DNA of 48,895 nucleotides from Flavobacteriales bacterium. Its GTDB lineage: Bacteria; Bacteroidota; Bacteroidia; NORP154. The notes beneath the pieces are model-generated. The model saw only the letters and a program-made list of their open reading frames with translations. It searched no databases and had not been told where the DNA came from. Shown here piece by piece: positions 25,997-47,500 of the stretch. The first letter of the stretch is position 1; the number at the start of each line of letters is the position of its first letter. Position numbers and translations under genes: made by a program. The stretch is taken from NCBI GenBank assembly GCA_012965955.1, contig DTRK01000283.1, forward strand, positions 1-48,895, in the 5' to 3' direction.

Positions 25997-26597
25997 TCAC
26001 CCATTTGCCGTGCCAATCCTCATATTTTATAATCTTCCCATCTGCATCCAGAAAATCTCCGTTGCTATCGCTTTTTATTATTTTGCATCTACCAGAGGTT
26101 ATAGCAGCTTTGACCAGAAATATTAAAGTCTCTTCATTGACTCCGGGATTCTCTCTACTCAAACCGGCCCCTATTTGATTGTTACACAAATCCATTGTAT
26201 TGGCTATCATATCTGGAAGAACCCCTTCTTCGTACTGCCGCTTCTTGAAGTCCTTCTCATTGCCCTTTTCGTGGGCCACACCCAATTTCAAGGCCTTTTT
26301 TTCCTTGATTTCCTGGCAAAGAGAAGCCATCCAGAAACAATGCCTGAATGCATCTACCTGCCCACCGTTGCCATAGCCATCCAGATCTGGTGATTTCTCC
26401 TGCTCCCTGGTAATTTCCGCTGCATGTTCTGAAAGCTTGAGTGTCTTGATGGTGATAAAAGGATGAGCATATACCCATCGTCTTTCAGGTGATGAAAGCC
26501 CGAAGAACTTCTTCAACCTGCCTTGTTGCGCGTATCCCGAGGAAAACACGCTTACACAAGCCATTACCAGGACGAATTTATGGAACGTAGATGTCAT
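25956..26597 (-). CDS. Hypothetical secreted protein
   Basis: 213-aa ORF with a signal peptide (FVLVMACVSVFSSGYAQ) and a conserved-looking DAFRHCFWMASL motif. I recognise no family with confidence. Confidence 0.55.
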   Translation of the reverse strand: MTSTFHKFVLVMACVSVFSSGYAQQGRLKKFFGLSSPERRWVYAHPFITIKTLKLSEHAAEITREQEKSPDLDGYGNGGQVDAFRHCFWMASLCQEIKEKKALKLGVAHEKGNEKDFKKRQYEEGVLPDMIANTMDLCNNQIGAGLSRENPGVNEETLIFLVKAAITSGRCKIIKSDSNGDFLDADGKIIKYEDWHGKWVNARCLVSSDHKVN

Positions 26598-26618
26598 TTG
26601 ACTGTAAGGAGATGTTCT

Positions 26619-26626
26619 TATATTTG
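26619..26626 (+). promoter_or_regulatory. Putative -7 promoter box (TATATTTG) for the M1 peptidase gene
   Basis: Exact TAnnTTTG match, 86 nt upstream of the ATG at 26712. Confidence 0.3.
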
Positions 26627-26661
26627 TTATGAGCGAGTCCGAACAACCTTGCCCCAGATAG

Positions 26662-26680
26662 GCCTGCCGGTCTGGCAGGC
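26662..26680 (+). promoter_or_regulatory. GC-rich perfect hairpin in the divergent intergenic region / M1 peptidase leader
   Basis: GCCTGCC-ggtct-GGCAGGC, a 7-bp stem with a 5-nt loop and no following T-run. Confidence 0.3.
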
Positions 26681-26711
26681 AGGCTCTAAGATAAGAATAA
26701 ACAGGTTTCTA

Positions 26712-34924: not shown

Positions 34925-37723
34925 ATGATAACAGGGCATTGGTCACACATGATTATCTGCCACAAGTTGCCTTATATGGTGGCTTTTGTATCAGGCGCAT
35001 ATCTCTCTTCAGCCATTTGTATGGGGCAGGGATATGTGGAGGAAAGCACATCATTAGGAATCGAACATTTGCATATTGGTCCGATGCTGATGGGTGGAGG
35101 AGCAGCGTTCCTCGATTTCGACGCAGATGGATATGAGGACCTCTATCTAACTGGTGGCACAGCAGCCGACAAACTGTACCGAAATAATGGGAACAGCACC
35201 TTTACTGATGTTACATTGTCGGCAGGAATTATAGGCACCGATTCGATCAATACTATGGGTGTGGTTGCCGGAGACCTGGATAATGATGGCTTTAAGGAAA
35301 TCTTTGTGACCACCTGGGACGGGTACGCCAACATTCTCTTTCAAAACAATGGAGATGGGACATTCCAAGACGTTTCTTTTTCCGCCGGAATAATAGATTC
35401 AGCACTGAGCGTGTCAGCAACATTGGGAGATGTCAATAAAGACGGATTTCTGGACATATACGTAGGCAATTACATCGACCTCTCCGTTGTTGCACCCAAT
35501 GGCTTTGATTATACGTGTTATGCCAATTACCTGTACATCAATAATGGCAATAACACGTTTACAGAATCTGGGTTGGCCTATGGAGTTGCAGATACGGGCT
35601 GCGCTCTGGCAGTGGCGTTTACCGATTTCGATGACTCCGGAGATATGGATGTATATCTAGCTAATGATTTTGGGAAATGGGTGCTGCCCAATGCGCTCTA
35701 TGAGAACAATTATCCAACACCAAATCACAGCAATATAACGATTTCTGCAGGCGTCAACGACTCAATATTTGGAATGGGGATAGCCATTGGTGATTACGAT
35801 GAAGATGGGGATTTCGACTACTACATTACCAACCTCGGGCGCAATGTGCTGCGGCAAAACCAGGGGAATGGAACATTGGACGATTATACAGATACCGCGG
35901 GAGTCACCAACACCTATACCGACAGTACTTTTATGGCCGTAGGATGGGGAACCGCATTTTTTGATTATGACAATGATACTTATCTGGATTTAATTGTTTC
36001 CAACGGATATATTCCCGCGGATTCATTTATCTACAATACCCCCAGCAACCCCAATAAATTGTATAGAAATACTGGGGGAGTAGCGTTTCAGGATGTGTCA
36101 GATGGGACTGGCTTTAACGACACCACCATTGGCAGAGGCTTAGCAATTGGCGACTATAATTATGATGGAGCTATAGACGTGGTAGTAGGTGTGGTGTACA
36201 TTGACACAACCAATGGTAATAGAACATTGGTTTATAATAATGGAGAACAAGGGAACAACTGGCTCAAAATAAGCTTACAAGGCGTAATCACAAACCGAGA
36301 TGCCTTTGGAAGCCATGTCATTGTGTACGCAGCGGGACGACAGTTTATCAGAGAAGTAGACGGTGGCTCAAGTCACTTGTCTCACAGCAGCAGTACTCTT
36401 CATTTCGGACTTGGCAGTATTCCAATGGTAGATTCAATAGTAGTTTCCTGGCTAAATGGTGGAAAAGACACATTGTTAAATGTTGCCGTGAATCAGCAAG
36501 TGCATTTGGTTGAGGACTCCTTGTTTTTCACGCTTCATTACCAGAAGGTACAAATTTGCTCAGGAGATAGTGCTTTTTTAGGTGGGGCCTACCAATTCAA
36601 CCAGGGAACATATCACGATACGCTTAGTTCGGTATACGGCCATGATAGCATTGTCCACTCTTCCCTGGCCTTTTCTGCACTCGTTACCGATACGGTGCAG
36701 ATCGCAATATGCGATGGTGATAGCGTTTTGGCAGGAGGTGCTTTTCAAGTCTCATCAGGAATTTATACTGACACCTTAACAGGCGTAACTTGTGACAGTG
36801 CAATAATTACAGAGCTCACGGTCCTTAATGCAGTTTTGAATATTATTAGCGACACAATCTGCGCTGGAGAATTGTTCGAGGGGGAACCATATACTAATGA
36901 CACGATTTTGACCAATGTCCTGACTGCTTCAAGCGGTTGCGATAGCGTGCTAACAATTAACTTGTCTGTTTGGCCTGTTTCAGATGTGGTTGTTGACACT
37001 ACCATCTGTAAAGGAGAATTGTATTTTGGCACTCTCTATTCTTCAGCTACCACCATTGTAGACAGCTTAAGCACTGCAATGGGTTGCGATAGCATCGTGA
37101 CCACGAACCTGCAAGTCTTAAATCCTGATTCATCGAGTAGCTCCTTCTCAATTTGCGAAGGGGATTTAGTGGGCGGCCAACCTGTGTCCTCCGATACATC
37201 AATTGTTGCGGTGTACAATGGTGTGAACGGATGTGACAGTGTTACAATTACCACAGTCACCGTGTTTCCGCCCGCTGCTAGCACCTCCAATCTCACGGTT
37301 GATTGGGGAGACACAATAATCGGTATTGTTGTGTTTGAAGACACCATCTTGTTTGACACATTAATTTCATCCAACGGATGCGATAGTGTCTCACAGCTTA
37401 CTGTTACGGTACTACTGCCTGACAACATTGCTGATATGAGCAGTCAAATATCCAACCCGATCAATTGCTACCCGAATCCGTTCACTTCGGAGTTGAACAT
37501 CGATCTGTTCATGCCTTTGAATGACGATGTACAAGTCACTATACACGACCTGACAGGAACAAAGGTTGCAGTAGTATATGCAGGCCGCTTAGGTAGCGGT
37601 AAACACGCTCTTAAGTGGAGTGGAACCACCGAATCAGGTTGTGCTGTGTCCCAAGGCCTATATATTTGCCGCCTTCTATCATCGGGAGCGTTTAGTTTGC
37701 ACCAGATAATTCTTATGAAATAG
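34925..37723 (+). CDS. CRTAC1-family FG-GAP/VCBS-repeat protein with an ASPIC/UnbV domain, six Cys-bracketed modules and a type A T9SS C-terminal sorting domain
   Basis: 932-aa ORF. The true start may be an internal Met at 34949 or 34976. It has repeated FG-GAP motifs (DFDADGYEDLY, DLDNDGFKEIF, DVNKDGFLDIY, DYDEDGDFDYY, DYNYDGAIDVV), the UnbV region NNWLKISLQG...DAFGSHV...GGSSHLS, the repeat block 36548-37416, and a tail CYPNPFTSELNIDL...DLTGTKV...GLYICRL. Confidence 0.85.
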   Translation: MITGHWSHMIICHKLPYMVAFVSGAYLSSAICMGQGYVEESTSLGIEHLHIGPMLMGGGAAFLDFDADGYEDLYLTGGTAADKLYRNNGNSTFTDVTLSAGIIGTDSINTMGVVAGDLDNDGFKEIFVTTWDGYANILFQNNGDGTFQDVSFSAGIIDSALSVSATLGDVNKDGFLDIYVGNYIDLSVVAPNGFDYTCYANYLYINNGNNTFTESGLAYGVADTGCALAVAFTDFDDSGDMDVYLANDFGKWVLPNALYENNYPTPNHSNITISAGVNDSIFGMGIAIGDYDEDGDFDYYITNLGRNVLRQNQGNGTLDDYTDTAGVTNTYTDSTFMAVGWGTAFFDYDNDTYLDLIVSNGYIPADSFIYNTPSNPNKLYRNTGGVAFQDVSDGTGFNDTTIGRGLAIGDYNYDGAIDVVVGVVYIDTTNGNRTLVYNNGEQGNNWLKISLQGVITNRDAFGSHVIVYAAGRQFIREVDGGSSHLSHSSSTLHFGLGSIPMVDSIVVSWLNGGKDTLLNVAVNQQVHLVEDSLFFTLHYQKVQICSGDSAFLGGAYQFNQGTYHDTLSSVYGHDSIVHSSLAFSALVTDTVQIAICDGDSVLAGGAFQVSSGIYTDTLTGVTCDSAIITELTVLNAVLNIISDTICAGELFEGEPYTNDTILTNVLTASSGCDSVLTINLSVWPVSDVVVDTTICKGELYFGTLYSSATTIVDSLSTAMGCDSIVTTNLQVLNPDSSSSSFSICEGDLVGGQPVSSDTSIVAVYNGVNGCDSVTITTVTVFPPAASTSNLTVDWGDTIIGIVVFEDTILFDTLISSNGCDSVSQLTVTVLLPDNIADMSSQISNPINCYPNPFTSELNIDLFMPLNDDVQVTIHDLTGTKVAVVYAGRLGSGKHALKWSGTTESGCAVSQGLYICRLLSSGAFSLHQIILMK
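36548..37416 (+). repeat. Six tandem modules of about 46 aa: IC.GD...G......G.Y.DTL.S..GCDS...T.L.V
   Basis: Read directly from the translation: VQICSGDS...HDSIV, VQIAICDGDS...TCDSAI, DTICAGEL...GCDSVL, TTICKGEL...GCDSIV, FSICEGDL...GCDSVT and a degenerate sixth ending GCDSVS. Confidence 0.75.
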
Positions 37724-37728
37724 CTTTG
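37721..37728 (+). promoter_or_regulatory. Putative -7 promoter box (TAGCTTTG) for the SiaB-like operon
   Basis: Exact TAnnTTTG match, 112 nt upstream of the GTG at 37840. It overlaps the stop codon of the preceding gene. Confidence 0.25.
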
Positions 37729-37839
37729 CTCTTCGATAATGTTTAAAAAATATTCTATTTTTCCATATTGGTTAGCGTTCATCTGGCTGAGCAAATAAAA
37801 GGTGCGTTTAGGAGGCTTTAATGGTTATAGACGTAGATT

Positions 37840-38388
37840 GTGAGTGTGAACATTGATAACATATTTGGAATTCACCATAAAATGCTGGACGAGAAGATCC
37901 TTTTAGCATATAAAGGGGATTTTAACCACGGTATTGTGAACGCGTTGCTCACCAATGCCAAGTCACAGATGGAGGGCTTGGGGCTAGACCTGGCCACCAG
38001 GAAGAAACTCTACAACATTATGGTTGAATGTCTGGAGAACATCAATCGATATGCAGGAGAGGGAACTTTTGAAAATGACTTGCTTCAAAGCTTCCCCTTA
38101 TTCCTTCTGGGACTGAGTGAAAATGGATATTATATCACTGTGGGAAATCTTATTCGTGGTGAAGACCAAGAACGTTTGAAAATACAGCTCGATGATGTCA
38201 ATAAATTGAATCGAGAAGAGTTAAAGGAGAAGTACCGCGATGCTATAATGGTGGCAAAAATAACAGAAGGGAGTGGGGCAGGATTGGGCATTATTGACAT
38301 GGCTATAAAATCTGAGCACCGTTTGGAATACACGTTTAATGATGTGAAGGATGATATTTCCTTTTTCATTTTAGAAATAAAAATCTAA
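37840..38388 (+). CDS. SiaB-like GHKL-fold serine/threonine protein kinase (anti-sigma-kinase-like)
   Basis: 182-aa ORF with a GTG start, an N-box-like ECLENINRYA and a G2-box-like GSGAGLGIIDMA. Its size and its position directly upstream of a DUF1987 gene match the siaB-siaC arrangement. Confidence 0.7.
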   Translation: MSVNIDNIFGIHHKMLDEKILLAYKGDFNHGIVNALLTNAKSQMEGLGLDLATRKKLYNIMVECLENINRYAGEGTFENDLLQSFPLFLLGLSENGYYITVGNLIRGEDQERLKIQLDDVNKLNREELKEKYRDAIMVAKITEGSGAGLGIIDMAIKSEHRLEYTFNDVKDDISFFILEIKI

Positions 38389-38411
38389 TCTGACTTTTAG
38401 TACAATTATTG

Positions 38412-38810
38412 ATGGAGGCTCTAAGAATAGAAGCAACTGAATTTACGCCAGAGGTCATAATGGATCCGGCATCAAACTCATTTGAGATTACAGGCGAATC
38501 CAGGCCAGAAAATGCAGGTAAGTTCTATCAGAAGATTCTTGATTGGTTAGACAGCTATTACAACCTGAGGTATTGGAAAGACAGCAAATTCAGTGGTGTC
38601 GACGCAGTATTTGAATTCAAACTTGATTATTTCAATTCTACTTCAGCAAAGTTTATACTGGATATCTTCATGAAACTCCAGACATTTCGAAAAGATGAGA
38701 TTAACATTAAGGTAAAATGGCACTATGCTAAGCCCGATCTCGATATGAAGGAATCTGGCGAGGAATTTGCAGAAATGACCGGTATTCCGTTCGAGTATAT
38801 CGCTACTTAG
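38412..38810 (+). CDS. SiaC-like DUF1987 domain protein (putative phospho-regulated partner-switch protein)
   Basis: 132 aa from the ATG at 38412 (the track uses the TTG at 38409). EFTPEVIMDP...FEITGESRPENAGKFYQKILDWL...FKLDYFNSTSAKFILDIF matches the DUF1987 pattern as I remember it. Confidence 0.75.
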   Translation: MEALRIEATEFTPEVIMDPASNSFEITGESRPENAGKFYQKILDWLDSYYNLRYWKDSKFSGVDAVFEFKLDYFNSTSAKFILDIFMKLQTFRKDEINIKVKWHYAKPDLDMKESGEEFAEMTGIPFEYIAT

Positions 38811-38865
38811 CTTAGCTGAAGATATTGAACGAATCGGTCTGTCGTGTCAAACCAACATTAGTCAA

Positions 38866-41448
38866 ATGGGCATAATCTTTAGGATATTCAATCTTGCATT
38901 CGCCCTATCCGTACTCATACTGTTTAGCACAGTAGCTTTTGCGCAGTCCCCGGATGTGCCATGGGACCGTGGACTCTTTGACGATAAGGAAGCATACAAA
39001 GATGCCTATAAAAACTTTCAAAAAGGCGAATCATTGTACGGGCAAGGAGTTTACTCCAAAGCCCTCACCCATTATCTTGCAGCCCACGACTTCAATCCGA
39101 ATAATGCTGAACTGAACATGAGAATTGGGGAATGTTACCTTTACTCATCTTCAAAACCTAAGGCCCGGGCTTATCTGGAAAAAGCGCTGGAACTAAACGA
39201 GAGAATAAATATTAGCATCCATTTGTTGCTTGGCAAGGCCCACCATTTGGAAATGAAATGGTCTCTGGCTCTGGAACAATATGGTAAATTCATTAATCTG
39301 GCCCAACAAGATGATGTGGACAGGATTAATCTGGCCCGGAAGAGAGTTGAAGAATGCAAGTATGGACAGGTGATGACCAAGACACCTATTAACGTAAAGA
39401 TAGAGGCCCTGCCAGCCCCGGTAAACTCTGAATTTGCGGAATATCATCCCCTGATATCAGCCGATGAAGCCGTGATGTACTTTACATCCAGAAGAGACAA
39501 TACAACAGGAGGTAATAGGGATTTAAACTACGATGTGTACTATGAGGACGTTTATAAAACTAGCGAGAAGGATGGTATTTGGGATGAGCCTGCAGGAATT
39601 GGACCGGAGGTCAATACCGATTTTCACGATGCAACAGTTGGGCTTTCTCCTGATGGTCAACAACTGTTCATCTTCAAAGACGATATTGGCGATGGAAACA
39701 TCTACTACTGCGAATTAGATGGGGATACATGGTCGACTCCACTTAAGCTCAACGAGAATATTAACTCTGAATTCAATGAAGCCACCGCCTGTTTCTCGTT
39801 TGATGGAATGACCATTTACTTCGTAAGTGACCGGCCAGGAGGTTTTGGCCAAAATGACATCTATATTGCCAAAAAGGGCGATGATGGGGATTGGGGGGTG
39901 CCAAAAAATTTAGGGGCTTCTGTCAACACGTTGTATAACGAAGATGCAGTGTTCATGCATCCTGATGGCAAAACCCTGTATTTCAGTTCTGAAGGCCACG
40001 CCAATATGGGTGGATATGACATCTTTCAGTCAGTCTATGATGCCGAGTCCAAGGTCTGGTCGACACCCAAGAATATGGGATATCCCATAAATAGCACTGA
40101 TGATGATGTGTTCTTCGTGCTATCAGCGAGTGGTGAAAGAGGCTACTATTCTTCTATAAAGAGCGATGGATTGGGGGAAAAGGACATTTACATGATTACA
40201 TTCCCCGATGAGAATGCCAAACCTGAACTTATCTTGGTGAAGGGAGTAGTAATCGACAAAGTCACAGGACGGCCCATTTACGCAGATATTGAAGTTGTTG
40301 ACAATGAAAAAAATGAGGTGGTGGCCCGCAGTAAATCCAATAAACTAACGGGAGAATATTTGTTCTCGCTTCCTTCAGGAAGAGATTACGGAGTAACGGT
40401 AACTGCTGATGGGTACTTCTTTTATTCAGAAAATATTGACGTTGCTAAGTCGACTCCATATCATGAAATCTTCAGAAATATTCAACTAAGTAAAATAGGA
40501 GAGGGAAAATCTATTGTCCTCAACTTTCTCTATTTTGAATATGACAAGGCAACGCTCACCAAACAATCCATTATGGAATTGGAGCGTGTGTTGGATTTAA
40601 TGAATTCAAACCCCAACCTCAAAATTGAAATTGCAGGCCATACAGACAATAAAGGAACCCAAGACTACAATGTACAGCTTTCTAAGAGGCGTGCGCAAGC
40701 AGTTGTGGATTGGCTGGCCAGCAAGAACATCGAGAGGTCTAAAATGACTTCGAAGGGTTATGGGTTTTCAATGCCTGTTGAGAGCAATGACACAGAAGCA
40801 GGAAGAGCCAAAAACAGGCGTACAGAATTTGTGGTCTTAGAGTACGATGTGCCACCGTCTAAGGAAAGATCATTGGATCCTCCAATGGAACCAACTATAG
40901 AATCAACGGCCCGAATTGCTCACACTGACCGGGAAAGGGAAGAACCTGTCATAGAACCAGCGGCAGAGTCCGAAGTGCAGCCAGAATCAACTACGGAGAC
41001 GCTGGCCAAAACGGATGACAAAGGCCAATCTGGCGGAGAGTCCTCACCTGACCCCGAACCTGTATTTTCAGAACCAGCCGTGGTTGTAGAAGAGACTGGC
41101 GCACCATATTCTACAGGTTTGCGCCCATTCTCCTCGTCCAAACCAAATTATTATAGTAGCAACAGGATTGAGGTGGACTCTAAAATGTCTGGTGGAGTTA
41201 TCTATCGTGTGCAAATTGGCTCTTTCTCAAAATTGCCTGAAGGAACCAAGCTTAAAGGGCTTTATCCAGTAACAGCAATGAAGCTCGACAACGGACTTTA
41301 CAGATGTAGTGTGGGTGAATTCAGAACCTATAAAGAGGCTAAGTTGACGCAAAAAGAGGTTAGGGCAACAGGGTTTTCAGATGCGTTTCTCATCGCTTTC
41401 TACAACGGGCAGAAAATCTCTGTTTCTAAAGCAATCAATTTGCAATAA
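38866..41448 (+). CDS. Envelope protein: signal peptide, TPR, PD40/TolB-like repeats, carboxypeptidase-regulatory-like fold, OmpA C-terminal-like domain, acidic Pro/Glu/Ser linker, SPOR domain
   Basis: 860-aa ORF with repeated S.DG..LYF.S.R.GG.G..DIY units. The OmpA-like domain reads FEYDKATL...IAGHTDNKGTQDYNVQLSKRRAQAV...NRRTEFVV. The SPOR-like end reads IYRVQIGSFSK...GLYRCSVGEFRTYKEA...GFSDAFLIAF. Confidence 0.85.
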   Translation: MGIIFRIFNLAFALSVLILFSTVAFAQSPDVPWDRGLFDDKEAYKDAYKNFQKGESLYGQGVYSKALTHYLAAHDFNPNNAELNMRIGECYLYSSSKPKARAYLEKALELNERINISIHLLLGKAHHLEMKWSLALEQYGKFINLAQQDDVDRINLARKRVEECKYGQVMTKTPINVKIEALPAPVNSEFAEYHPLISADEAVMYFTSRRDNTTGGNRDLNYDVYYEDVYKTSEKDGIWDEPAGIGPEVNTDFHDATVGLSPDGQQLFIFKDDIGDGNIYYCELDGDTWSTPLKLNENINSEFNEATACFSFDGMTIYFVSDRPGGFGQNDIYIAKKGDDGDWGVPKNLGASVNTLYNEDAVFMHPDGKTLYFSSEGHANMGGYDIFQSVYDAESKVWSTPKNMGYPINSTDDDVFFVLSASGERGYYSSIKSDGLGEKDIYMITFPDENAKPELILVKGVVIDKVTGRPIYADIEVVDNEKNEVVARSKSNKLTGEYLFSLPSGRDYGVTVTADGYFFYSENIDVAKSTPYHEIFRNIQLSKIGEGKSIVLNFLYFEYDKATLTKQSIMELERVLDLMNSNPNLKIEIAGHTDNKGTQDYNVQLSKRRAQAVVDWLASKNIERSKMTSKGYGFSMPVESNDTEAGRAKNRRTEFVVLEYDVPPSKERSLDPPMEPTIESTARIAHTDREREEPVIEPAAESEVQPESTTETLAKTDDKGQSGGESSPDPEPVFSEPAVVVEETGAPYSTGLRPFSSSKPNYYSSNRIEVDSKMSGGVIYRVQIGSFSKLPEGTKLKGLYPVTAMKLDNGLYRCSVGEFRTYKEAKLTQKEVRATGFSDAFLIAFYNGQKISVSKAINLQ

Positions 41449-43523
41449 TGGGCATGAACAGAATATTTTTTCTCTTTTGTCTACTCGGGTTTCTCCTGAT
41501 TTCATTGAATGTCATCGGCCAATCGAATATTGAGCAACTTCAATCCCAGCTAGATACCGCATCAGAAAGCGACAAAGCAAATATCTATAATCAACTGTCA
41601 CAGCTATATTTCAACACAGATGATGACGAAAAAAGCCTGGAGAATGCCAAAAATGCGCTGAGAAGTGCTAAAGCGTCCAAGAATGTAAACGAGGAAGCTG
41701 AAGCGCACATCAATCTCGGACTGCTGAATAGCAAGGCGGGAAAGTACCAGGAAGCAATTGAAGATTTTAAGTCGTCACTAGCCATTCACGAAACACACGA
41801 CAGCAAGCTGGGAGTGGGTTACAATTATATTCAAATTGGCCTTTGTTATGGGCAATTGAAAAATTCGTCAACAGCACTAGAACATTTCAATAAGGCATTC
41901 AACGTGTACAACGGGCTCAATGACAATGAGGGAATGTCACATGCATTGGTAAGGATTGGTGAAGTGCATTTTGCAAACGGAAATTATGAAAAAGCTATAG
42001 CCGAATATGAAAAAGCTATTATATATGATAAGAAGACCGATGACCAAGCAGCAATGGCCCAAACCTATAATATGATTGGCTCTTCATATTCTAACTTTGG
42101 GAATTATGAACTTGCCCAAACCATCCTGGTTAAAGCGCTTGCCCTGGCAAAATCAAGCAATCAGTCTATTCTGACGAACAATGTTTTAAGAAACCTGGAA
42201 GTTGTCGAGAGAAACCTAGAAGCATATCGGGAAAGTAAATCGGAATTTCAAAAAATAGAGGAGGCAAAAAAAGAAGAACAAATTCAGGATTTGGAGGTTA
42301 AAAGTTCTCAATTGGAAGAGCAGACCTCAGAGTTTCTTAACACTATTGCCACACTCGACGAAGAAAACAAGATAATTGCACTTCTTGCAAAGGTGAACAA
42401 GGACGCATTGAGGCAAGAAAAGCTGCTCAAAGAACAAAAAGCACAGGAATTAGAACTTGAAAAAAAGGAAAATCAGATAAAAGAGGCGGCGAGCCAGGCT
42501 GAGATTGAAAAGAAACGGACTGAGATTGAAAAGAAAAATGCCATTACAGCTGGATTGATTGTAGGACTCGTTTTCCTGGCAGCAATCGTTTTTCTAATAC
42601 TGAACCGATACCAACAGAAACGTAAAGCGAATACTCAACTGGCTAAGCAAAATCAAGAAATTACAGAGCAAAAAGAAGAGATCAGTGGCCAAAAGGAAAA
42701 GCTAGAGGCGCAAAAATCGCAGCTCGAAAGAACGAACAGACAAATCACAGACAGTATAGACTATGCCAAGCGTATTCAAAATGCCTTGCTCAGCTCAAAG
42801 GCGAAAATTAGCGCACTGTTACCGGAGTCATTCATTCTATTTAAGCCTAAAGCTGTTGTAAGCGGGGACTTCTACTGGATAAAAGAAAAGAATGGAAGTA
42901 TCCTCTTCGCAGCTGCGGATTGCACGGGCCATGGTATTCCAGGTGCTTTTATGAGTATCATTTCAAACAATGTACTTAACGATATTATGGCTCAGCATGA
43001 CACGAGCAATCCGGGAGAGATTTTAAAAATGGCAAGTGATAAAATTATCGCCCTGCTCCAGGATAAAGAATCGCAGGTTGTCGAGTCAAGTGATGGCAGC
43101 AAGATCGAATGGGAGGTGAAAGATGGTATGGATATCGCTTTGTGTTCTCTTAACAAGGACAGCTTGCAGCTGCAGTATGCAGGTGCACACAATCCGTTGT
43201 ATGTGATAAGAGATGGAAAATTGACCGAATACCGTGGTGACCGATTGTTCATAGGTAACACTACAGAATCAACGGTATTCAACACTCACGAAATTCCATT
43301 GAAAAAGGGCGATATGCTTTATGTTTTCTCTGATGGATTTGTAGATCAGAGGGGAGGGCCGGAAAACAAAAAATTCTACTACCAGCCTTTTCAGGAAATG
43401 CTTCTTGAGATCCATCAGAAAGGCATGGATGAACAACGGACTCACCTTGACAGGGTGCTCACGGACTGGATGGGCAATCATGAACAAATCGACGACGTGA
43501 TAATATTTGGGGTAAAGATATAG
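41448..43523 (+). CDS. Transmembrane PP2C/SpoIIE-family Ser/Thr phosphatase with an extracytoplasmic TPR plus coiled-coil sensor region (SiaA-analogous)
   Basis: 691-aa ORF with an N-terminal signal/anchor, TPR repeats (about aa 30-260), a coiled coil and a TM helix ITAGLIVGLVFLAAIVFLILN followed by basic NRYQQKRK. The PP2C motifs are VSGDFYW, AADCTGHGIPGAFMS, DGMDIAL, SDGFVDQ and DDVIIFGVKI. The ATG overlaps the upstream TAA (TAATG). Confidence 0.85.
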   Translation: MGMNRIFFLFCLLGFLLISLNVIGQSNIEQLQSQLDTASESDKANIYNQLSQLYFNTDDDEKSLENAKNALRSAKASKNVNEEAEAHINLGLLNSKAGKYQEAIEDFKSSLAIHETHDSKLGVGYNYIQIGLCYGQLKNSSTALEHFNKAFNVYNGLNDNEGMSHALVRIGEVHFANGNYEKAIAEYEKAIIYDKKTDDQAAMAQTYNMIGSSYSNFGNYELAQTILVKALALAKSSNQSILTNNVLRNLEVVERNLEAYRESKSEFQKIEEAKKEEQIQDLEVKSSQLEEQTSEFLNTIATLDEENKIIALLAKVNKDALRQEKLLKEQKAQELELEKKENQIKEAASQAEIEKKRTEIEKKNAITAGLIVGLVFLAAIVFLILNRYQQKRKANTQLAKQNQEITEQKEEISGQKEKLEAQKSQLERTNRQITDSIDYAKRIQNALLSSKAKISALLPESFILFKPKAVVSGDFYWIKEKNGSILFAAADCTGHGIPGAFMSIISNNVLNDIMAQHDTSNPGEILKMASDKIIALLQDKESQVVESSDGSKIEWEVKDGMDIALCSLNKDSLQLQYAGAHNPLYVIRDGKLTEYRGDRLFIGNTTESTVFNTHEIPLKKGDMLYVFSDGFVDQRGGPENKKFYYQPFQEMLLEIHQKGMDEQRTHLDRVLTDWMGNHEQIDDVIIFGVKI

Positions 43524-43590
43524 CGCCGGTCAACCTGTCATCAAGTAAAAAACATTTGCCGACCTCTTTGCTCTTAAGCCATATTTAGTA

Positions 43591-44589
43591 TCACAAGAAA
43601 CTAACTGAAGATTTTCGGGCCTCTGTAAAGACCTTGTAGCCCAACAGAATCTCATGGCTGCCCGTGGAATACTGCTTTAGCTCTGAAAGTGTCACATCAT
43701 ATGAATATCCAATATTTATTTTATCCTTGATATTATAGCCCGCTATAATTACCAACGCATCATTTGTTCTATATGACAATCCTCCCCACATTTGCTCCTT
43801 GAAGTTCACCTTTATATTAAAATCCAACGTTAAAGGAGCTGGACTCATGTATTTTAACATTAGGCTAGGAGTTATGTTGAGGTCATTTTTTAGATAGAAC
43901 TTATATCCACCCGTTACAAAGTGGTGAATGTTGACTTTAGTTTCCGCAGGAATGTCAATGTCGCGAATGTGGTTTTGGAGGAGCTGTTCACTGGAATACC
44001 CAATGTAGAATTTGTCTGAAAAAACCCAGATGCCACTGTTCATGTCAAAGAACGACTTTCTCAATCCCATGGATACCAGGTAGTCGTATGTATTGTCATT
44101 GGGGTCTGCTACCTCAACTTTTTTCGCATTCATCTGCCATGCCGAAATACCTGCTCCAAGGCCTAAAGACATTCTTATCTCCTCAGTAATATTCAAGTGC
44201 AGGGCATACGATACATAACCAGCCGTATTTGTAAATGCCCCGTACGTATCTGAAACAATATATCCGCCAATGCCATGGCTGAGCAACTTCCTCCCACTCT
44301 TAACCTCTGTAAATCCAAGTCGACTAGATCTCAGACTGGAACCTTTGGTACCGCCTCCAATGGTTCCATCGATGCTGAAGTAGGAAGTCTTGGGCGCATC
44401 AGTGAATCCCGTCCATTGATCTCTGTAAGACAGTTTTAAGTTGACATTATTATTAACGCCTGAGGTAGCCGGGTTTAATAATATGGGATTGTGCAAATAC
44501 TGGCTGAACTGTGCCAGCTGTTGGCCACTCACCAGGTTAGCACTCGTTAAGATCGCCAGTAGTATTAATGTCTTTTTCCGTTGTTTCAT
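43591..44589 (-). CDS. PorP/SprF-family type IX secretion system outer-membrane protein
   Basis: 332-aa ORF with a signal peptide followed by QQLAQFSQYLHNPILLNPATSG...YRDQWTGFTDAPKT, the hallmark N-terminus of PorP/SprF. The remainder is beta-barrel-like. It starts 1 nt after the stop of the type B adhesin gene. Confidence 0.9.
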   Translation of the reverse strand: MKQRKKTLILLAILTSANLVSGQQLAQFSQYLHNPILLNPATSGVNNNVNLKLSYRDQWTGFTDAPKTSYFSIDGTIGGGTKGSSLRSSRLGFTEVKSGRKLLSHGIGGYIVSDTYGAFTNTAGYVSYALHLNITEEIRMSLGLGAGISAWQMNAKKVEVADPNDNTYDYLVSMGLRKSFFDMNSGIWVFSDKFYIGYSSEQLLQNHIRDIDIPAETKVNIHHFVTGGYKFYLKNDLNITPSLMLKYMSPAPLTLDFNIKVNFKEQMWGGLSYRTNDALVIIAGYNIKDKINIGYSYDVTLSELKQYSTGSHEILLGYKVFTEARKSSVSFL

Positions 44590-44590
44590 C

Positions 44591-47500
44591 TTATTTCATT
44601 ATGGTAACAGCACCAGTGACCGGATCACTGCCCTCGTGAAGATCAATTATGAAGAAATAGGATCCCATTGGCAGTTCCTTGCCTTGATAGGTTCCATCCC
44701 AGGGGTCTTCATATCCAATGGAGTTGAATATCATTTGGCCCCATCGGCCCATAATAGTTACCTCCACCTTAGGATAAAGAGACATATCTCCAATCGTCCA
44801 AAAATCATTGACCCCATCTCCATTTGGTGTAAACGCAGTGGCTGCGTCAATCATAGCGACCTTAATAATTACCGTATCTGTCACCGTACATCCCTCATTA
44901 TCTTCAATACCAATGATATATATACCCGCTGACAATCCTGTTGCAGTAGAGCTTGTATGTCCGCTGGACCACATATAAGTATAAGGTGCAACTCCTCCAA
45001 CAGCGGTAACAGAGCCCGAACCATCTGAATTGCCAATTGAAGCATTTTGAGCAGTTGTCGTAGACGTGACAGCGAGGTTCTCAGTAATTGAAGTGCCAAT
45101 CGCAGCATTGCACCCTTTCGAGTCTACTACATCTACTGACACCAGCCCTCCTGACAACCCAACGGCTACTGAAGTAGTTTGACCATCATCCCACAGATAT
45201 GTATAGGCGGGATTTCCTCCTGCAGCAACTACAATGGCTGTTCCATTGGATACTCCTCCGCACGTAACCGCCGTTTCTGACACACTTAGTGTTAACATCG
45301 CTGGTTCAGTCACGGTGATCATGTCAACCAATTGGCACCCATTATCATCTGTAACAGTAACACCATAAGTGCCTACACTCAAGGAAATAATCACAGGGTC
45401 AATTTGTCCCCCATCCCAGAGGTAGTCATACGGAGGCACACCACCCTGGGCAGAAATCGCGGCAGAGCCATCCTGGCCGCCATTGCAGCTTACTGCTGTG
45501 CCAGAGCCAATGCTCGTTAAGGCGGCCGGTTCAGATACGATCGCTGTATCAATACTTGTACAGCCATTGACGTCAGCTATCACTACACTGTATGTTCCAG
45601 CCGTTAAAGCCTGTGCAGTATCAGTTGTCTGTAAGGCAATATCATCCCACTGGAAGGTATATGGTGTACTTCCACCTGATCCCGCCCCAATGGCAAACCC
45701 ATCCGAACCTCCATTACAACTTACATCAACAGTTGCAATTGAGGCCACTAAAGGCGTTGTAGGTTCCATTACACTGGCAGAATCAATTCCAACACATCCA
45801 TTGAAGTCTGTAACCGTAACCGCATAAGTGCCAGAAGGCAACCCAGTTGCGGTAGAGTTGGTTTGACTGCTGCCATCATTCCACAAATAGGAATACGGGC
45901 CAGTTCCCCCAGATGCGACAACTGTTGTTGTTCCATCAGCACCTCCAGTACAGTTAGCATTAACGGCAGATGTAACCAACACCGGATTTGAATTAACTGT
46001 CATTGATATTGGTGCAGAAACCGCAGAGCAAAGGTTTGTATCTGTAACCTGAACAATGTATGCTCCCGTGCTTGTTACAGTTATAGTGCTGGTAATTTCT
46101 ACTGTGCTCCACAAATAAGTGACCCAGGATCCCGCCGACAAGCCCACGCTGTCTCCCTGACAGAATGATGTTGGGCCATTAGCCACAATAACCGGAACCG
46201 GCAATGGATTAACCAAAGTTGTCAGGGTGGTATCCTTTGTACAACCATTTCCATCAGTATATGAATACGTCACACTGTGCGTTCCCACACCGGCTACAGC
46301 AGGATCAAATGTGCTGCCAGAAACACCGGTTCCTGAGAATGTGCCTCCCAATGGAAAGCCCACTAAGTTGGCTGCCAATCCATCCACGCAATACTCCGCA
46401 CCTAGTCCCGAGAATGTAACTGCCGGCAGGGCAAGGACAACCACCGTTTGGGAAGTGCTATCACCACAGCCATACGCGTCCACAAACAAATATTGAACAA
46501 CATGAGCCCCAACACCTGCAACAACAGGGTCAAATGTGCTCCCACTCATGCCAGGTCCTGAGAACACTCCTCCCGCCGGCACTCCCGTTAGACTTGACGT
46601 CCCAGCGTCAACACAATAAGTAGCATTTAAGCCAGTAAAACTTGCAATGGGTTGTGAAACAACATTCGTTGTATCTGTTTGAAAGCTTGCACAGCTATTG
46701 CTATCTGAATAAGTATATGATATTACATGCATTCCTGTACCTGCGATAGAAGGGAAAAAGCTATTGCCACTTATTCCATTTCCGCTGAAGAAACCAGCAG
46801 CAGGTGTTCCACTAAGAACATCTCCACCTGCACTAACGCAATAGGCAGTGTCCAGGCCGGTGAACGTAACAACCGGCAATGCATTTACAACAGTATTAGT
46901 TTGAGCGCTATCTGTGCATCCATTCCCATCAGTGTATGTGTAAGTAATTGCATAACTTCCAATGCCTGCCGCCGCAGGGTCAAACGAAGATCCCGTAACA
47001 CCAGTACCTGTAAAAGTACCCCCCGGTATGAAGCCAACCAGATTAGCCGGACTTGCATCTACACAATAGCTGCTATCCAAGCCGGAAAACGTCACAGCAG
47101 GCAATGGATTTACCACTACAGATTGCAGCAAGCTATCTGTACAACCACCACCATCTGAATACACATACACAATGGAATGGGTACCCGTTCCGGCAACAGC
47201 CGGATCAAATACGTTTGATGTAATTCCAGGACCTGAGAAGGTTCCTCCAATTGGTGATCCTGTGAGTGTTTCTGTTGCTGCACTCACACAATAGGCGGCA
47301 GATAGTCCTGAAAATGACACTACGGGAAGTGGAGTTACTACTGTACCCTGTACCTGTGAGCCAGTACAGCCATTACCATCTGTATAAACATACGTAACAG
47401 TGTGTGAACCTGTATCTGCTACAGACGGCACAAATGCCCCTCCTGAGACGCCCGTTCCTGAGAATGTTCCTCCAAGAGGAGAGCCCACCAGCACTGCAGC

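Follow-up and report, generated by a model that had tools for sequence, protein, structure and literature searches.

What does a Sia-type partner switch control when no diguanylate cyclase is encoded beside it, and why should a wall-binding envelope protein be found among its genes? Both questions are raised by four co-directional genes at positions 37840-43523 of the window, by which we mean the whole 48,895-nt stretch of Flavobacteriales DNA analyzed here. We propose that they encode a partner switch in which the periplasmic input side is coupled to the anchoring of T9SS cargo to the wall, and in which the output is unlinked and is not a cyclase; based on genomic context and topology, we assign this reading a probability of about 0.5.

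A four-gene operon kept in diverged relatives

All four genes lie on the + strand, in the order SiaB-like kinase (ORF1; 37840..38388, 182 aa from a GTG start), SiaC-like phosphoprotein (ORF2; 38412..38810, 132 aa from ATG, or 133 aa if translation starts at a TTG one codon upstream), PorE-like/SPOR protein (ORF3; 38866..41448, 860 aa) and SiaA-like TPR-TM-PP2C phosphatase (ORF4; 41448..43523, 691 aa). Gaps of 23 nt and 55 nt separate the first three genes, and the ORF3 stop codon shares 1 nt with the start of the PP2C gene (TAATG); at this last junction, three relatives (L090, L091 and L001) have a gap of 5-15 nt. The ORFs, sizes and spacing reported in a preliminary description of this DNA are borne out by the ORF coordinates and by direct reading of the sequence. 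Relatives keep the gene order at SiaC identities of 67-89% and ORF3 identities of 56-75%, which argues that the four-gene set is not a chance arrangement of ORFs.

Directly upstream, across a 116-nt gap, a + strand gene (34925..37723) encodes an FG-GAP/ASPIC-UnbV protein that has a C-terminal domain of T9SS type A (Pfam FG-GAP_3, UnbV_ASPIC, Por_Secre_tail). All close relatives have this gene in synteny, L001, L090 and L091 with gaps of 49-97 nt, and it may or may not belong to the same transcription unit as the operon. Overlapping its stop codon, 112 nt ahead of the SiaB-like start, is TAGCTTTG (37721..37728, + strand), which matches the Bacteroidota -7 motif TAnnTTTG and has no further + strand counterpart from 37700 to 42092. 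This short motif occurs 28 times in the window, below the shuffle mean of 39.5; judged from this match, TAGCTTTG is a weak candidate for the operon promoter.

The three switch components

ORF1 is predicted to be a cytoplasmic, GHKL-like Ser/Thr protein kinase of the SiaB family (DUF6272). Pfam DUF6272 matches it at 2.3e-32, the NCBIfam model SiaB_fam_kinase scores 137.6 bits against a cut-off of 85, and SiaB itself (6kko_A, 1.8e-10) is the sole match in a PDB search. Its E63 and N67, which align with SiaB E61 and N65, are conserved in 100% and 98% of 74 homologues, respectively, and G148-L-G150 in at least 94%; hydropathy revealed no hydrophobic segment and no export signal. The same is true of ORF2, a predicted cytoplasmic, STAS-like phosphoprotein of the SiaC family (Pfam SiaC/DUF1987, 1.4e-33; PDB matches to SiaC, 6kko_C and 6k4f, 4e-10). 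Its FNSTS segment aligns with the LNTSS segment of SiaC that holds T68, the experimentally shown phosphosite (PMC7647112). The predicted phospho-acceptor motif N75-S76-T77-S78 is intact; across 20 homologues it shows no variation at N75, S76 or S78 and at least 90% conservation at T77.

The phosphatase combines TPR_12, found in five stretches (Pfam, 9e-38), with a SpoIIE/PP2C domain at residues 482-690 (42891-43517; Pfam, 2.7e-22), for which SiaA-PP2C (6k4e_A, 2.7e-27) is the sole PDB match. The PP2C motifs GDFY, DCTGHG, SDGFVDQ and DDV are kept, and the metal-binding Asp residues are at least 91% conserved among 74 homologues. The NCBIfam SiaA model covers residues 394-689 only. By hydropathy, an N-terminal signal or anchor (residues 1-28) and one transmembrane (TM) segment (residues 366-387, approximate limits; 42543-42608) enclose the TPR region. 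Thus, the TPR domain (residues ~40-250) and the coiled coil that follows it (residues ~255-365) would be extracytoplasmic, and the PP2C domain, separated from the TM by a cytoplasmic coiled coil, would face the cytoplasm, in agreement with the topology originally described.

An exported PorE-like protein in the third position

ORF3 is, by its domain content and modeled fold, a predicted PorE-like paralogue, in which a T9SS wall-anchor domain set is extended by a SPOR tail as a second wall-binding domain. Pfam assigned OmpA (1e-21), PD40, TPR_11 and SPOR (25.4 bits, cut-off 21), all above cut-offs, with CarboxypepD_reg at 23.1 bits under its cut-off of 32.3. The NCBIfam models CHU_0125_OmpA (334.6 bits, cut-off 620) and T9SS_PorE (297.7 bits, cut-off 600) remained below cut-off, though near-full model length was matched in both cases. 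An AF2 model with a mean pLDDT of 80.1 supports the domain boundaries, which on the + strand comprise a signal peptide (residues 1-27; 38866-38946), TPR (41-172; 38986-39381), a TolB/PD40-type beta-propeller (178-445; 39397-40200), a CRD beta-sandwich (455-541; 40228-40488), OmpA_C (549-659; 40510-40842), a disordered linker (665-750; 40858-41115) of S/E/P-rich composition and SPOR (778-859; 41197-41442). [quoted passage not shown] All families anticipated in the preliminary description (DUF1987, SiaB family, PP2C/SpoIIE, OmpA and SPOR) have thereby been assigned by profile searches.

Hydropathy detects an N-terminal signal-like segment only; the signal peptide has no lipobox Cys, and ORF3 is not a lipoprotein. 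With a signal peptide and no further hydrophobic segment, ORF3 is predicted to be exported, and because the SiaC-like protein is cytoplasmic, direct binding between the two is excluded. The gene had been said to sit in the effector position; it does come after the SiaC-like gene, but a role as SiaC effector is unlikely for an exported protein when neither the SiaB-like nor the SiaC-like protein has an export signal. The other suggestion made at the time, namely that the state of the envelope or wall is sensed through the OmpA/SPOR protein and the periplasmic TPR domain, fits better given ORF3 export.

Convergent with the operon, 67 nt past the PP2C stop codon, lies a - strand gene (43591..44589) for a PorP/SprF-family T9SS outer-membrane shuttle/anchor (Pfam PorP_SprF, 2.2e-74; TIGR03519, 256.9 bits, cut-off 90.55), a convergent neighbor also present in L001, L010, L011, L013, L014, L090 and L091. 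Next to it, likewise on the - strand (44591..48790), is the gene for a surface protein with SprB repeats and a C-terminal sorting domain of T9SS type B (Pfam SprB in five stretches, CHU_C at 2.6e-21; TIGR04131 type B, 65.4 bits, cut-off 35). The N-terminus of this protein may extend upstream of the listed ORF start, and the protein is presumed to be the cargo of the adjoining PorP/SprF. PorE-like proteins encoded beside PorP-like and type B cargo proteins are thought to anchor the cargo statically to the wall, and it has been proposed that static and mobile type B cargo differ in the presence or absence of such an anchor (PMC9143113, PMC12618676). Neither the PorE-like nature of ORF3 nor the location of the operon beside this PorP/SprF and type-B-CTD cargo pair had been pointed out in the preliminary description.

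No cyclase and no other cytoplasmic partner

Among window ORFs of at least 150 aa, Pfam identifies none with a GGDEF, EAL or HD domain, a phmmer search with a GGDEF consensus likewise yields no GGDEF domain in stop-to-stop ORFs of at least 60 aa, and the original statement that the window holds no GGDEF, EAL or HD-GYP motif is upheld. We extended the search to 89 related loci, mostly MAG contigs, with up to 10 kb on each side. None of these loci contains a GGDEF ORF, the consensus query having been validated against the PDB, where its top match was SiaD itself (7e6g_A, 3.6e-41). It is thus unlikely that a SiaD lies just outside the window, and the concern that homologous modules might consistently have a GGDEF gene beside them finds no instance among the 89.

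Could the canonical SiaABCD logic nevertheless apply, with an unlinked cyclase (SiaD-like GGDEF or other) as the SiaC target and the OmpA/SPOR gene as an unrelated insertion? The visible DNA amounts to 49 kb of the genome, and for SiaB, SiaC and PP2C alike the best or only relative of solved structure is a Pseudomonas Sia protein. However, besides the result at the 89 loci, the NCBIfam SiaB, SiaC and SiaA equivalog models all score far under their cut-offs and, to our knowledge, c-di-GMP enzymes are generally few in Bacteroidota. The putative target-binding surface argues in the same direction. The residues of P. aeruginosa SiaC that contact SiaD, R103, L107, E110 and D114 (PMC8457831), align with D111, S115, E118 and M122 of the window protein, so that three of the four are replaced, with the charge reversed between R103 and D111. 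The surrounding DxDMKESGExF is near-invariant among 20 Bacteroidota homologues, with eight positions invariant and two at least 90% conserved. The SiaC-like protein therefore appears to carry a partner face different from that of P. aeruginosa SiaC, which we count in favor of our model, and we consider an unlinked cyclase quite improbable.

Unbiased clustering of neighbor genes uncovered no recurrent cytoplasmic partner but PP2C; specifically, no sigma factor or regulator recurs beside the SiaB-SiaC pair. This also speaks against the kinase being the output, as in RsbW/SpoIIAB, in which case the SiaB-like protein would hold a cytoplasmic target, such as a sigma factor or other regulator, and free it once the unphosphorylated SiaC-like protein binds the kinase, and there would be no separate SiaC effector. 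Kinases of the RsbW type target group-3 sigma factors, which Bacteroidota, as far as we know, do not have, and the sole known action of SiaB is that of a kinase. Such a scheme would accord with the GHKL anti-sigma-kinase fold class of SiaB and the STAS-like nature of SiaC (PMC7647112, PMC8457831), with the frequent occurrence of SiaB-SiaC pairs on their own (L004, L007, L020, L043) and with the existence of tandem DUF6272 and tandem SiaC fusions, but on balance we find it rather unlikely.

Envelope genes recur beside SiaB-SiaC pairs

Envelope and T9SS genes do recur in the neighborhoods of these pairs. Across the SiaB/SiaC pairs of 80 Bacteroidota genomes, a PP2C phosphatase occurs within 1 kb in 44 cases and an OmpA-family wall anchor in 20. 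OmpA-domain gene starts number 1.34 per 10 kb within 1 kb of SiaBC versus 0.18-0.29 at 1-10 kb, i.e. they are 5-7 times denser than a background estimated from locus flanks only. PorP/SprF, CHU_C cargo and M23 wall hydrolases (the latter in L040, L051 and L045) are further recurrent neighbors. The gene orders in which such neighbors occur number at least three and belong to separate SiaC clades, with OmpA-linked loci spread over at least three separate clades of the SiaC tree. In class 1 loci, in the class 3 loci L045 and L066, and in L021 and L022, the OmpA-family gene directly adjoins the PP2C gene. L045 and L066 have the order CHU_C or PorP, PorE-like, TPR-PP2C, SiaB, SiaC, and L060 the order CHU_C, PorP, PorE-like, SiaB, SiaC, PP2C, in all three on one strand with small gaps or overlaps; directly upstream of SiaB there is SprB-repeat/CHU_C cargo in L033 and L036, and a CHU_C-matching gene in L028 and L038. 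Every SPOR-tailed ORF3 orthologue looked up sits inside the four-gene operon. Most relatives have SiaB-SiaC alone or followed by one or more PP2C genes, and many pairs, such as the four solitary ones named above, have no envelope gene nearby. Class 2 loci encode an OmpA protein beside SiaB with no PP2C within the fetched stretch, and hence do not fit a strict OmpA-PP2C pairing.

It could be argued that there is no functional link at all, a PorE-like paralogue having landed in the regulatory operon of one lineage and the other associations merely reflecting the high copy number of OmpA/PorE-like and cargo genes. The PorE-like family is indeed huge (more than 7,800 matches at E <= 1e-20), and a typical member (P0155, in L092) is not beside any Sia gene. 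Moreover, the four-gene order with the SPOR-tailed protein is confined to one narrow, syntenic Flavobacteriales lineage and by itself represents roughly one evolutionary event. Coincidence is, however, hard to reconcile with the local excess of OmpA genes, the several gene orders in separate SiaC clades, the overlapping or very tight junctions and an arrangement kept at ORF3 identities down to 56%, and we consider it just as improbable as the unlinked cyclase.

A model for sensing of wall anchoring

In the model we favor, the SiaB-like kinase would phosphorylate the SiaC-like protein on S76 or T77, and a signal at the periplasmic TPR domain would cause the phosphatase to strip this phosphate. 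That signal would arise from, or be shaped by, the PorE-like/SPOR protein, which may report the state of peptidoglycan or the wall anchoring of PorP/SprF-bound type-B cargo, here the neighboring SprB-repeat adhesin, and would thus serve as a periplasmic partner of the phosphatase (input or scaffold) rather than as the SiaC effector. The unphosphorylated SiaC-like protein would then bind a cytoplasmic target that is neither a diguanylate cyclase nor encoded beside the module. A precedent is provided by P. aeruginosa YfiB, a wall-binding, OmpA-like lipoprotein through which the state of the envelope is communicated to the inner-membrane enzyme YfiN.

Alternatively, control could run inside out, with the PorE-like/SPOR protein as the regulated output and not the input. 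The phospho-state of the SiaC-like protein, or SiaB/SiaC binding to its partner, the cytoplasmic part of the phosphatase, would alter the conformation of the periplasmic TPR domain, which would govern ORF3 wall anchoring, such that the neighboring type-B adhesin is held static or released. We know of no precedent for an outward-signaling PP2C partner switch, which counts against this possibility. ORF3 does occupy the place that siaD has in the Pseudomonas operon, with its translation coupled to that of the phosphatase gene, none of the 89 loci encodes another effector nearby, and the proposed role of PorE-like anchors in setting type B cargo static or mobile (PMC9143113, PMC12618676) would suit such an output. 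Nevertheless, SiaC-type proteins work by binding cytoplasmic targets (PMC8457831) and most SiaB-SiaC-PP2C modules have no OmpA gene nearby, so that we regard inside-out control as unlikely. Sensing from the periplasm inward remains our preferred reading, and the recurrence of cyclase-free Sia-like switches beside T9SS cargo-anchoring genes points to an undescribed envelope-sensing pathway; in keeping with the original claim, a literature search found no account of such modules in Bacteroidota.

Comparison with known systems

SiaABCD of P. aeruginosa (PA0172-PA0169) shares with the window all three switch components (best or only solved relatives 6kko_A, 6kko_C/6k4f and 6k4e_A), the SiaB catalytic Glu, an acceptor motif of the T68 type where helix alpha-2 begins, the PP2C metal-binding motifs, and a membrane-bound phosphatase with an extracytoplasmic sensor. 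In contrast to it, neither the window nor the 89 related loci hold a SiaD/GGDEF protein, the order is B-C-X-A instead of A-B-C-D, the SiaD-contact residues are largely replaced (three of four), and the operon includes an exported wall-binding protein. The sensor consists of TPR and coiled coil with a single TM after the signal/anchor, whereas SiaA has a two-TM periplasmic domain and HAMP. Scores on the NCBIfam equivalog models for SiaB, SiaC and SiaA are 71.9, 71.4 and 189.6 bits against cut-offs of 225, 150 and 700.

With PorE of P. gingivalis (PG1058) and the PorE-like proteins of F. johnsoniae (e.g. the Fjoh_3952-3950 operon), ORF3 shares the domain order TPR, beta-propeller, CRD, OmpA_C and the vicinity of genes for PorP/SprF and type B CTD cargo. 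Unlike them, it falls well below the PorE-model cut-off, has no lipobox Cys and carries the extra disordered linker and SPOR domain; instead of following PorP and cargo, its gene lies in a regulatory operon on the opposite strand. In L001, L010, L011, L013, L014 and L091, PorP is followed by a shorter PorE-like gene of its own, which is absent from the window and L090.

Residues 8-403 of ORF4 (signal/anchor, TPR, coiled coil and TM) match the model of the P. gingivalis histidine kinase FimS at 1e-14, which identifies its input module as a sensor type common in Bacteroidota, although the score of 53.8 bits is far under the cut-off of 600 and the output domain is PP2C, not a histidine kinase.

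YfiBNR of P. aeruginosa, in which an OmpA_C-type peptidoglycan-binding periplasmic protein is co-encoded with an inner-membrane signaling enzyme having a periplasmic sensor, may serve as a working analogy for inward relay of envelope state. Similarity to YfiB is confined to the OmpA_C domain of ORF3, where the YfiB model reaches 87.7 bits, and the YfiB structures 4zhv, 5eb1 and 6ikk are among the fold matches of ORF3. YfiB differs, however, in being a small lipoprotein that sequesters the periplasmic repressor YfiR, for which there is no similar gene here, and that system has a GGDEF cyclase as its output enzyme instead of a PP2C partner switch.

Finally, the classical partner switches SpoIIE/SpoIIAA/SpoIIAB and RsbU/RsbV/RsbW likewise co-encode a PP2C phosphatase, a GHKL-type kinase and a STAS-like phosphoprotein, but the antagonist of the window module is DUF1987 and not a canonical STAS protein, its kinase is DUF6272, and it has no linked sigma factor. 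Among them, SpoIIE is a membrane phosphatase through which dephosphorylation is coupled to the division septum, a morphological or envelope event.

Results

The operon consists of four co-directional, tightly packed genes on the forward strand, which encode the SiaB-like ORF1 (37840-38388; 182 aa, GTG start), the SiaC-like ORF2 (38412-38810; 132 aa), the PorE-like ORF3 with its SPOR tail (38866-41448; 860 aa) and the TPR-PP2C protein ORF4 (41448-43523; 691 aa). As read directly from the sequence, the genes are separated by gaps of 23 nt and 55 nt and then by a TAATG stop/start overlap. The packing claimed in the preliminary description is thus borne out by the coordinates, and profile searches against Pfam and NCBIfam confirmed the families it had predicted (SiaB-like, DUF1987, TPR/PD40/OmpA/SPOR and TPR/PP2C). 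Scans of 37500-43800 for sigma-70 promoters and intrinsic terminators returned sites no more numerous than in shuffled sequences, and the window gave no matches when scanned for Rfam families and for tRNAs. Bacteroidota promoters depart from the sigma-70 consensus, and a single TAnnTTTG match at 37721-37728 could represent the -7 box of the operon.

By profile and alignment, ORF1 is a member of the SiaB family of protein kinases. Its score of 137.6 bits with NCBIfam NF038262 (SiaB_fam_kinase) exceeds the curated cut-off of 85, the match extending from residue 9 to 182 and over model positions 2-177 of 177, and Pfam DUF6272 gives 111.9 bits against a cut-off of 26.6 (2e-32). Sia proteins of Pseudomonas aeruginosa are the best or only solved relatives of both ORF1 (SiaB 6kko_A, 1.8e-10) and ORF2 (SiaC 6kko_C and 6k4f, 4e-10). 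E63 and N67 of ORF1 align with E61 and N65 of 6kko_A, E61 being the predicted catalytic Glu of SiaB (PMC7647112); the catalytic Glu, the GHKL N-box Asn and the G-box are all kept in the alignment, and conservation among 74 non-identical homologues amounts to 100% for E63, 98% for N67 and at least 94% for G148-L-G150.

ORF2 matches Pfam PF09345 (SiaC/DUF1987) with 115.5 bits (cut-off 24.5; 1.4e-33); its residues 6-131 align to positions 1-119 of the 120 in the model. The phosphosite of SiaC was mapped experimentally to T68 in the peptide LLYLNTSSIK (PMC7647112), and LNTSS of 6kko_C aligns with FNSTS of ORF2, in whose motif N75-S76-T77-S78 the first, second and fourth residues never vary across 20 Bacteroidota SiaC homologues, with T77 at least 90% conserved. 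Either S76 or T77 is the candidate phosphorylated residue, and sequence alone does not separate them. The SiaD-contact residues of SiaC, namely R103, L107, E110 and D114 (PMC8457831), align with D111, S115, E118 and M122 of ORF2, which lie within the motif DxDMKESGExF that is almost invariant across the Bacteroidota set. With three of the four SiaD-contact residues replaced, the SiaC-like protein seems to carry a conserved yet different partner face, and a SiaD-type cyclase is probably not its target; the helix bearing the motif may, however, serve in contacts with the kinase or phosphatase as well.

In ORF4, Pfam recorded five stretches of TPR_12. Residues 482-690 were assigned to SpoIIE/PP2C, a domain whose sole sequence match in the PDB was SiaA-PP2C 6k4e_A (2.7e-27 over 229 residues). 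The PP2C motifs GDFY, DCTGHG, SDGFVDQ and DDV are present, with their Asp residues at least 91% conserved among 74 homologues. A hydropathy scan detected hydrophobic segments at residues 1-28 and 366-387, and the first 400 residues comprise a signal or anchor, the TPR, a coiled coil and one TM segment. Because of these two segments, the TPR and coiled coil are predicted to be periplasmic and the PP2C domain cytoplasmic, just as the preliminary description had placed them. Judged by their sequences, the three switch components look functional.

ORF3 scored 297.7 bits against the NCBIfam PorE model NF052230 (cut-off 600; residues 48-638, model positions 19-600 of 648) and 334.6 bits against CHU_0125_OmpA (cut-off 620), in both cases over almost the full model length. 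With one contig considered, we rejected ORF3 as the PorE orthologue of this genome at the level of the NCBIfam cut-off; since it scores under that cut-off, it is taken to be a PorE-like paralogue and not PorE itself. The PorE domain order of TPR, beta-propeller, CRD and OmpA_C is present by Pfam, the PorE model, AlphaFold2 and Foldseek. In the AlphaFold2 model (31 homologues, mean pLDDT 80.1, pTM 0.67), a signal helix is followed by the TPR (41-172), the propeller (178-445), a CRD beta-sandwich (455-541) and OmpA_C (549-659), and then by an 85-residue disordered S/E/P-rich linker and a compact alpha/beta domain (778-859), in which strands and helices alternate with block-mean pLDDT of 83-93. 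Pfam assigned residues 780-841 to SPOR (PF05036), the score of 25.4 bits being above the cut-off of 21. [quoted passage not shown] Taken together, the NCBIfam, AlphaFold2, Pfam and Foldseek results argue that ORF3 is a PorE-like paralogue to which a second, predicted wall-binding module has been added. Unlike PorE, it has a signal peptide, MGIIFRIFNLAFALSVLILFSTVAFAQS, that contains no Cys, and thus lacks the lipobox of an outer-membrane lipoprotein. The PorE-like family numbers more than 7,800 matches at E <= 1e-20; among the matches listed, most are 650-700 aa long and only about a dozen are full-length ORF3 orthologues with the C-terminal extension, with SPOR recorded by Pfam in half (6/12) of the full-length orthologues listed.

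The hydropathy scan revealed only an N-terminal signal-like segment in ORF3 and no hydrophobic segment in ORF1 or ORF2. The preliminary description had read the operon as a Sia-type switch without a cyclase, with ORF3 in the effector position. The former part stands. The latter reading does not, because topology places ORF3 outside the cytoplasm, where it cannot directly bind the cytoplasmic SiaC-like protein; it follows from the predicted topology that its natural partner would be the periplasmic part of the phosphatase.

Directly downstream of the operon, and convergent with it, profile searches identified a PorP/SprF gene (43591-44589) and a gene whose product combines SprB repeats with a type B T9SS sorting domain (44591-48790). 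The connection of ORF3 with the PorP/SprF protein is one of gene adjacency. The gap between the PP2C and PorP/SprF genes, 43524-43590, measures only 67 nt, and L090, a further relative of this operon, likewise has no extra genes there. The cargo-PorP pair of the window and of L090 has no PorE-like gene of its own, ORF3 being the only one nearby. In the close relatives L001 (15287-19055), L010, L011 and L013, a second TPR-PP2C gene and a shorter, separate PorE-like OmpA gene lie between the first PP2C and PorP/SprF genes, the second TPR-PP2C being 34% identical to ORF4; L014 and L091 have the PorE-like gene and a single PP2C. The gene that immediately precedes the operon, on its strand, encodes an FG-GAP/ASPIC-UnbV protein ending in a type A T9SS CTD (34925-37723, +). 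L001, L090 and L091 keep this gene in synteny, the gap measuring 49-116 nt, and it could share a transcript with the operon.

Elsewhere in the window, a CNNM/CBS/CorC_HlyC membrane protein gene (14600-15997, +) is overlapped by that of the gliding lipoprotein GldD (15891-16598, +), a pair that resembles gldE-gldD of Flavobacterium johnsoniae. T9SS cargo is dense: three more proteins with type A sorting domains are an endonuclease/exonuclease/phosphatase (6423-8342, -), a purple-acid-type metallophosphatase (17961-19640, +) and an M1 peptidase with SprB repeats (26523-29654, +). The presence of GldD beside the CNNM/CBS/CorC protein, together with several T9SS cargo genes, suggests that the source organism is a member of Flavobacteriales equipped for gliding motility and T9SS as far as its genes go; the relatives nearest to it are marine subsurface MAGs. 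In its housekeeping part, the window encodes a GWxTD-domain protein (21510-22787, -) and a protein of 588 aa that matches POTRA weakly (24230-25996, -).

To place the operon in a comparative frame, a SiaC alignment was scanned against one genome per species, which yielded 80 loci, all from Bacteroidota; these and nine metagenome loci were annotated by phmmer with queries from the window and a GGDEF consensus, for which SiaD 7e6g_A was the top PDB match. Carriers of the module include the MAGs NORP269 (JAESRW01), NORP157 (NVRW01), UWMA-0021 (DTRI01) and B1T1B10 (JACZWC01), and locus L042 bears the label Chitinophaga pinensis. The preliminary description had allowed that a cyclase might lie just beyond the window, and no GGDEF ORF was detected in the window or in any of these 89 related loci, which are MAG fragments, such that unlinked partners, cyclases included, would escape the survey. 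The EAL consensus applied to the loci had no positive control, and the claim for the loci is restricted to GGDEF; absence of EAL and HD is claimed for the window only, where Pfam found neither these nor GGDEF in any ORF of at least 150 aa, in agreement with the earlier reading.

All-against-all clustering of 1,137 neighbouring ORFs grouped SiaC from 88 loci, SiaB from 79, PP2C from 54, OmpA/PorE-like proteins from about 29 (in three clusters) and PorP from 14. These ORFs were examined for the recurrent fifth partner proposed earlier: PP2C, OmpA/PorE-like proteins and PorP do recur, and no cytoplasmic effector candidate common to clades emerged. The remaining clusters are lineage-specific synteny blocks, such as an ABC transporter and a 7TMR-DISM histidine kinase in the clade of Bacteroidales or, elsewhere, FeoB, DUF6427 and housekeeping genes. 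A search for domain fusions that would reveal an effector returned only tandems: SiaC-SiaC in one polypeptide in L017 (397-1215, +) and L066 (9973-10803, +), and DUF6272-DUF6272 in L066 (14214-15344, -), a locus with three separate SiaC and two TPR-PP2C genes within 12 kb.

The gene orders were sorted into six classes. The first, that of the window lineage, contains SiaB, SiaC, the PorE-like protein with SPOR and one or two TPR-PP2C genes, and converges on a cargo operon in which CHU_C and PorP are joined, in most members, by a second PorE-like gene. In the second (13 loci), an OmpA-family protein with a CRD and two OmpA domains is encoded directly upstream of SiaB-SiaC-SiaC. The third (L045, L066) has CHU_C, PorP, PorE-like, TPR-PP2C, SiaB and SiaC on one strand with tiny gaps, and varies in L074, where a T9SS lipase replaces the PorE-like protein, and in L060, where PP2C follows SiaC. 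The fourth has SiaB-SiaC and then one to four TPR-PP2C genes, with a SprB-repeat/CHU_C cargo gene directly upstream of SiaB in L028, L033, L036 and L038; the fifth, from Bacteroidales, has SiaB-SiaC with a convergent PP2C, and the sixth SiaB-SiaC alone. The SPOR-tailed, full-length orthologues that were looked up (L090, L091) have this operon between the same flanks, and judged from these gene orders the four-gene arrangement is an invention of one lineage.

OmpA-domain genes start at a density of 1.34 per 10 kb within 1 kb of the adjacent SiaB-SiaC pair versus 0.18-0.29 per 10 kb at 1-10 kb, and the OmpA-linked loci fall into at least three separate clades of the SiaC tree. The PorP link is indirect, via the PorE-like or PP2C gene, because the number of PorP genes within 1 kb of the pair is 0. 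For many SiaB-SiaC pairs no envelope gene is a neighbour, and in class 2 no PP2C is adjacent. Read from gene context, the cross-clade theme is the cell envelope, represented by wall anchors, type B cargo with its shuttles, and wall hydrolases.

Peptidase_M23 wall hydrolases are encoded two genes upstream of SiaB in L040 (7949-8917) and L051 (314-1345), and an Amidase_2-CUB-M23 protein directly downstream of SiaC in L045 (6278-8587). In L021 (15720-19638) and L022 (15451-19373), about 5 kb from SiaB-SiaC, PP2C is followed by a Kelch-propeller, CRD and OmpA_C protein, so that propeller-CRD-OmpA proteins of a second type also pair with PP2C. In L044 (4284-7592, +), directly upstream of SiaB-SiaC, the PP2C protein carries a Reg_prop/Y_Y_Y periplasmic sensor in place of the TPR. 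Such sensors occur in Bacteroides hybrid two-component glycan sensors, and, as far as domain composition indicates, these phosphatases can exchange one sensor domain for another. An orphan SiaC paralogue, 54-55% identical and with no adjacent SiaB, directly follows the gene for a 696-aa Porin_10 outer-membrane protein in L009/L018 (11-2533; contig JAESRW010000013, same MAG as L010). This MAG is the closest to the window, and additional SiaC copies may exist in the window organism as well.

Discussion

PorE-like proteins encoded beside PorP-like shuttles and type B cargo have been proposed to fix the cargo statically to the wall, whereas mobile adhesins such as SprB have no PorE-like neighbour (PMC9143113, PMC12618676). 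In the most economical model, ORF3 and the periplasmic TPR of the phosphatase would form the input side and report the state of the wall or of anchoring, phosphorylation of the SiaC-like protein would be set by the PP2C domain against the SiaB-like kinase, and the SiaC-like protein would act on an unlinked cytoplasmic target. Carried further, this would constitute an undescribed envelope-to-cytoplasm route for T9SS surface proteins of Bacteroidota, in which the PorE-like/SPOR anchor and the periplasmic-TPR PP2C phosphatase sense the peptidoglycan anchoring of PorP/SprF-bound type B cargo (SprB-like adhesins) and relay it via SiaB/SiaC to a target unrelated to c-di-GMP; we give this reading a probability of roughly one in four. 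SPOR would then serve as an extra domain binding septal glycan, and the target could be a transcription factor, for instance, or the motor of gliding and the T9SS. Whatever in these readings goes further than family assignment and topology is drawn from gene context, and the T9SS-anchoring claim, which comes from gene neighbourhoods alone, should be regarded as a generator of hypotheses and not as a demonstrated pathway. The link to cargo anchoring is specific and testable, and it was overlooked in the preliminary description.

If true, the envelope-to-cytoplasm route would amount to feedback control of adhesin anchoring or of gliding. To our knowledge, little has been learned about the regulation of the T9SS/gliding apparatus beyond PorXY-SigP in P. 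gingivalis, or about how cells choose between a mobile and a wall-fixed type B adhesin. The conserved switch of kinase, phosphatase and phosphoprotein, whose genes accompany those of PorE-like anchors, PorP/SprF shuttles and SprB-like cargo, offers a concrete candidate for such a regulator and is open to genetic tests. In the literature searched, the coverage of which was incomplete and included few subscription-journal papers, we found none tying T9SS to PP2C partner switches or dealing with DUF6272/DUF1987 modules in Bacteroidota, in keeping with the earlier statement that no experimental description of such a module was known.

We know of the SiaABC logic only as a c-di-GMP/biofilm switch in Pseudomonas. 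Bacteroidota is a phylum with few c-di-GMP enzymes, and since the same logic is in use there, the DUF1987 family must have at least one other target class, which could be found by pull-down.

Compared with SiaABCD of P. aeruginosa, the module described here has no co-encoded GGDEF cyclase (SiaD). Scores against all three equivalog models lie far under their cut-offs, with 71.9 bits versus 225 for ORF1 (NF038264, SiaB), 71.4 versus 150 for ORF2 (NF038265, SiaC) and 189.6 versus 700 for ORF4 (NF038263, SiaA; match limited to residues 394-689), and the switch proteins are therefore family members and not orthologues of the Pseudomonas proteins. The sensor of SiaA consists of two TM segments flanking a periplasmic domain, followed by HAMP (PMC7647112), whereas ORF4, in which Pfam reported no HAMP domain, lacks this architecture and keeps the SiaA-type PP2C domain. 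On the envelope side, a precedent is offered by YfiB of P. aeruginosa, an OmpA-like wall binder that passes the state of the envelope to an inner-membrane signalling enzyme.
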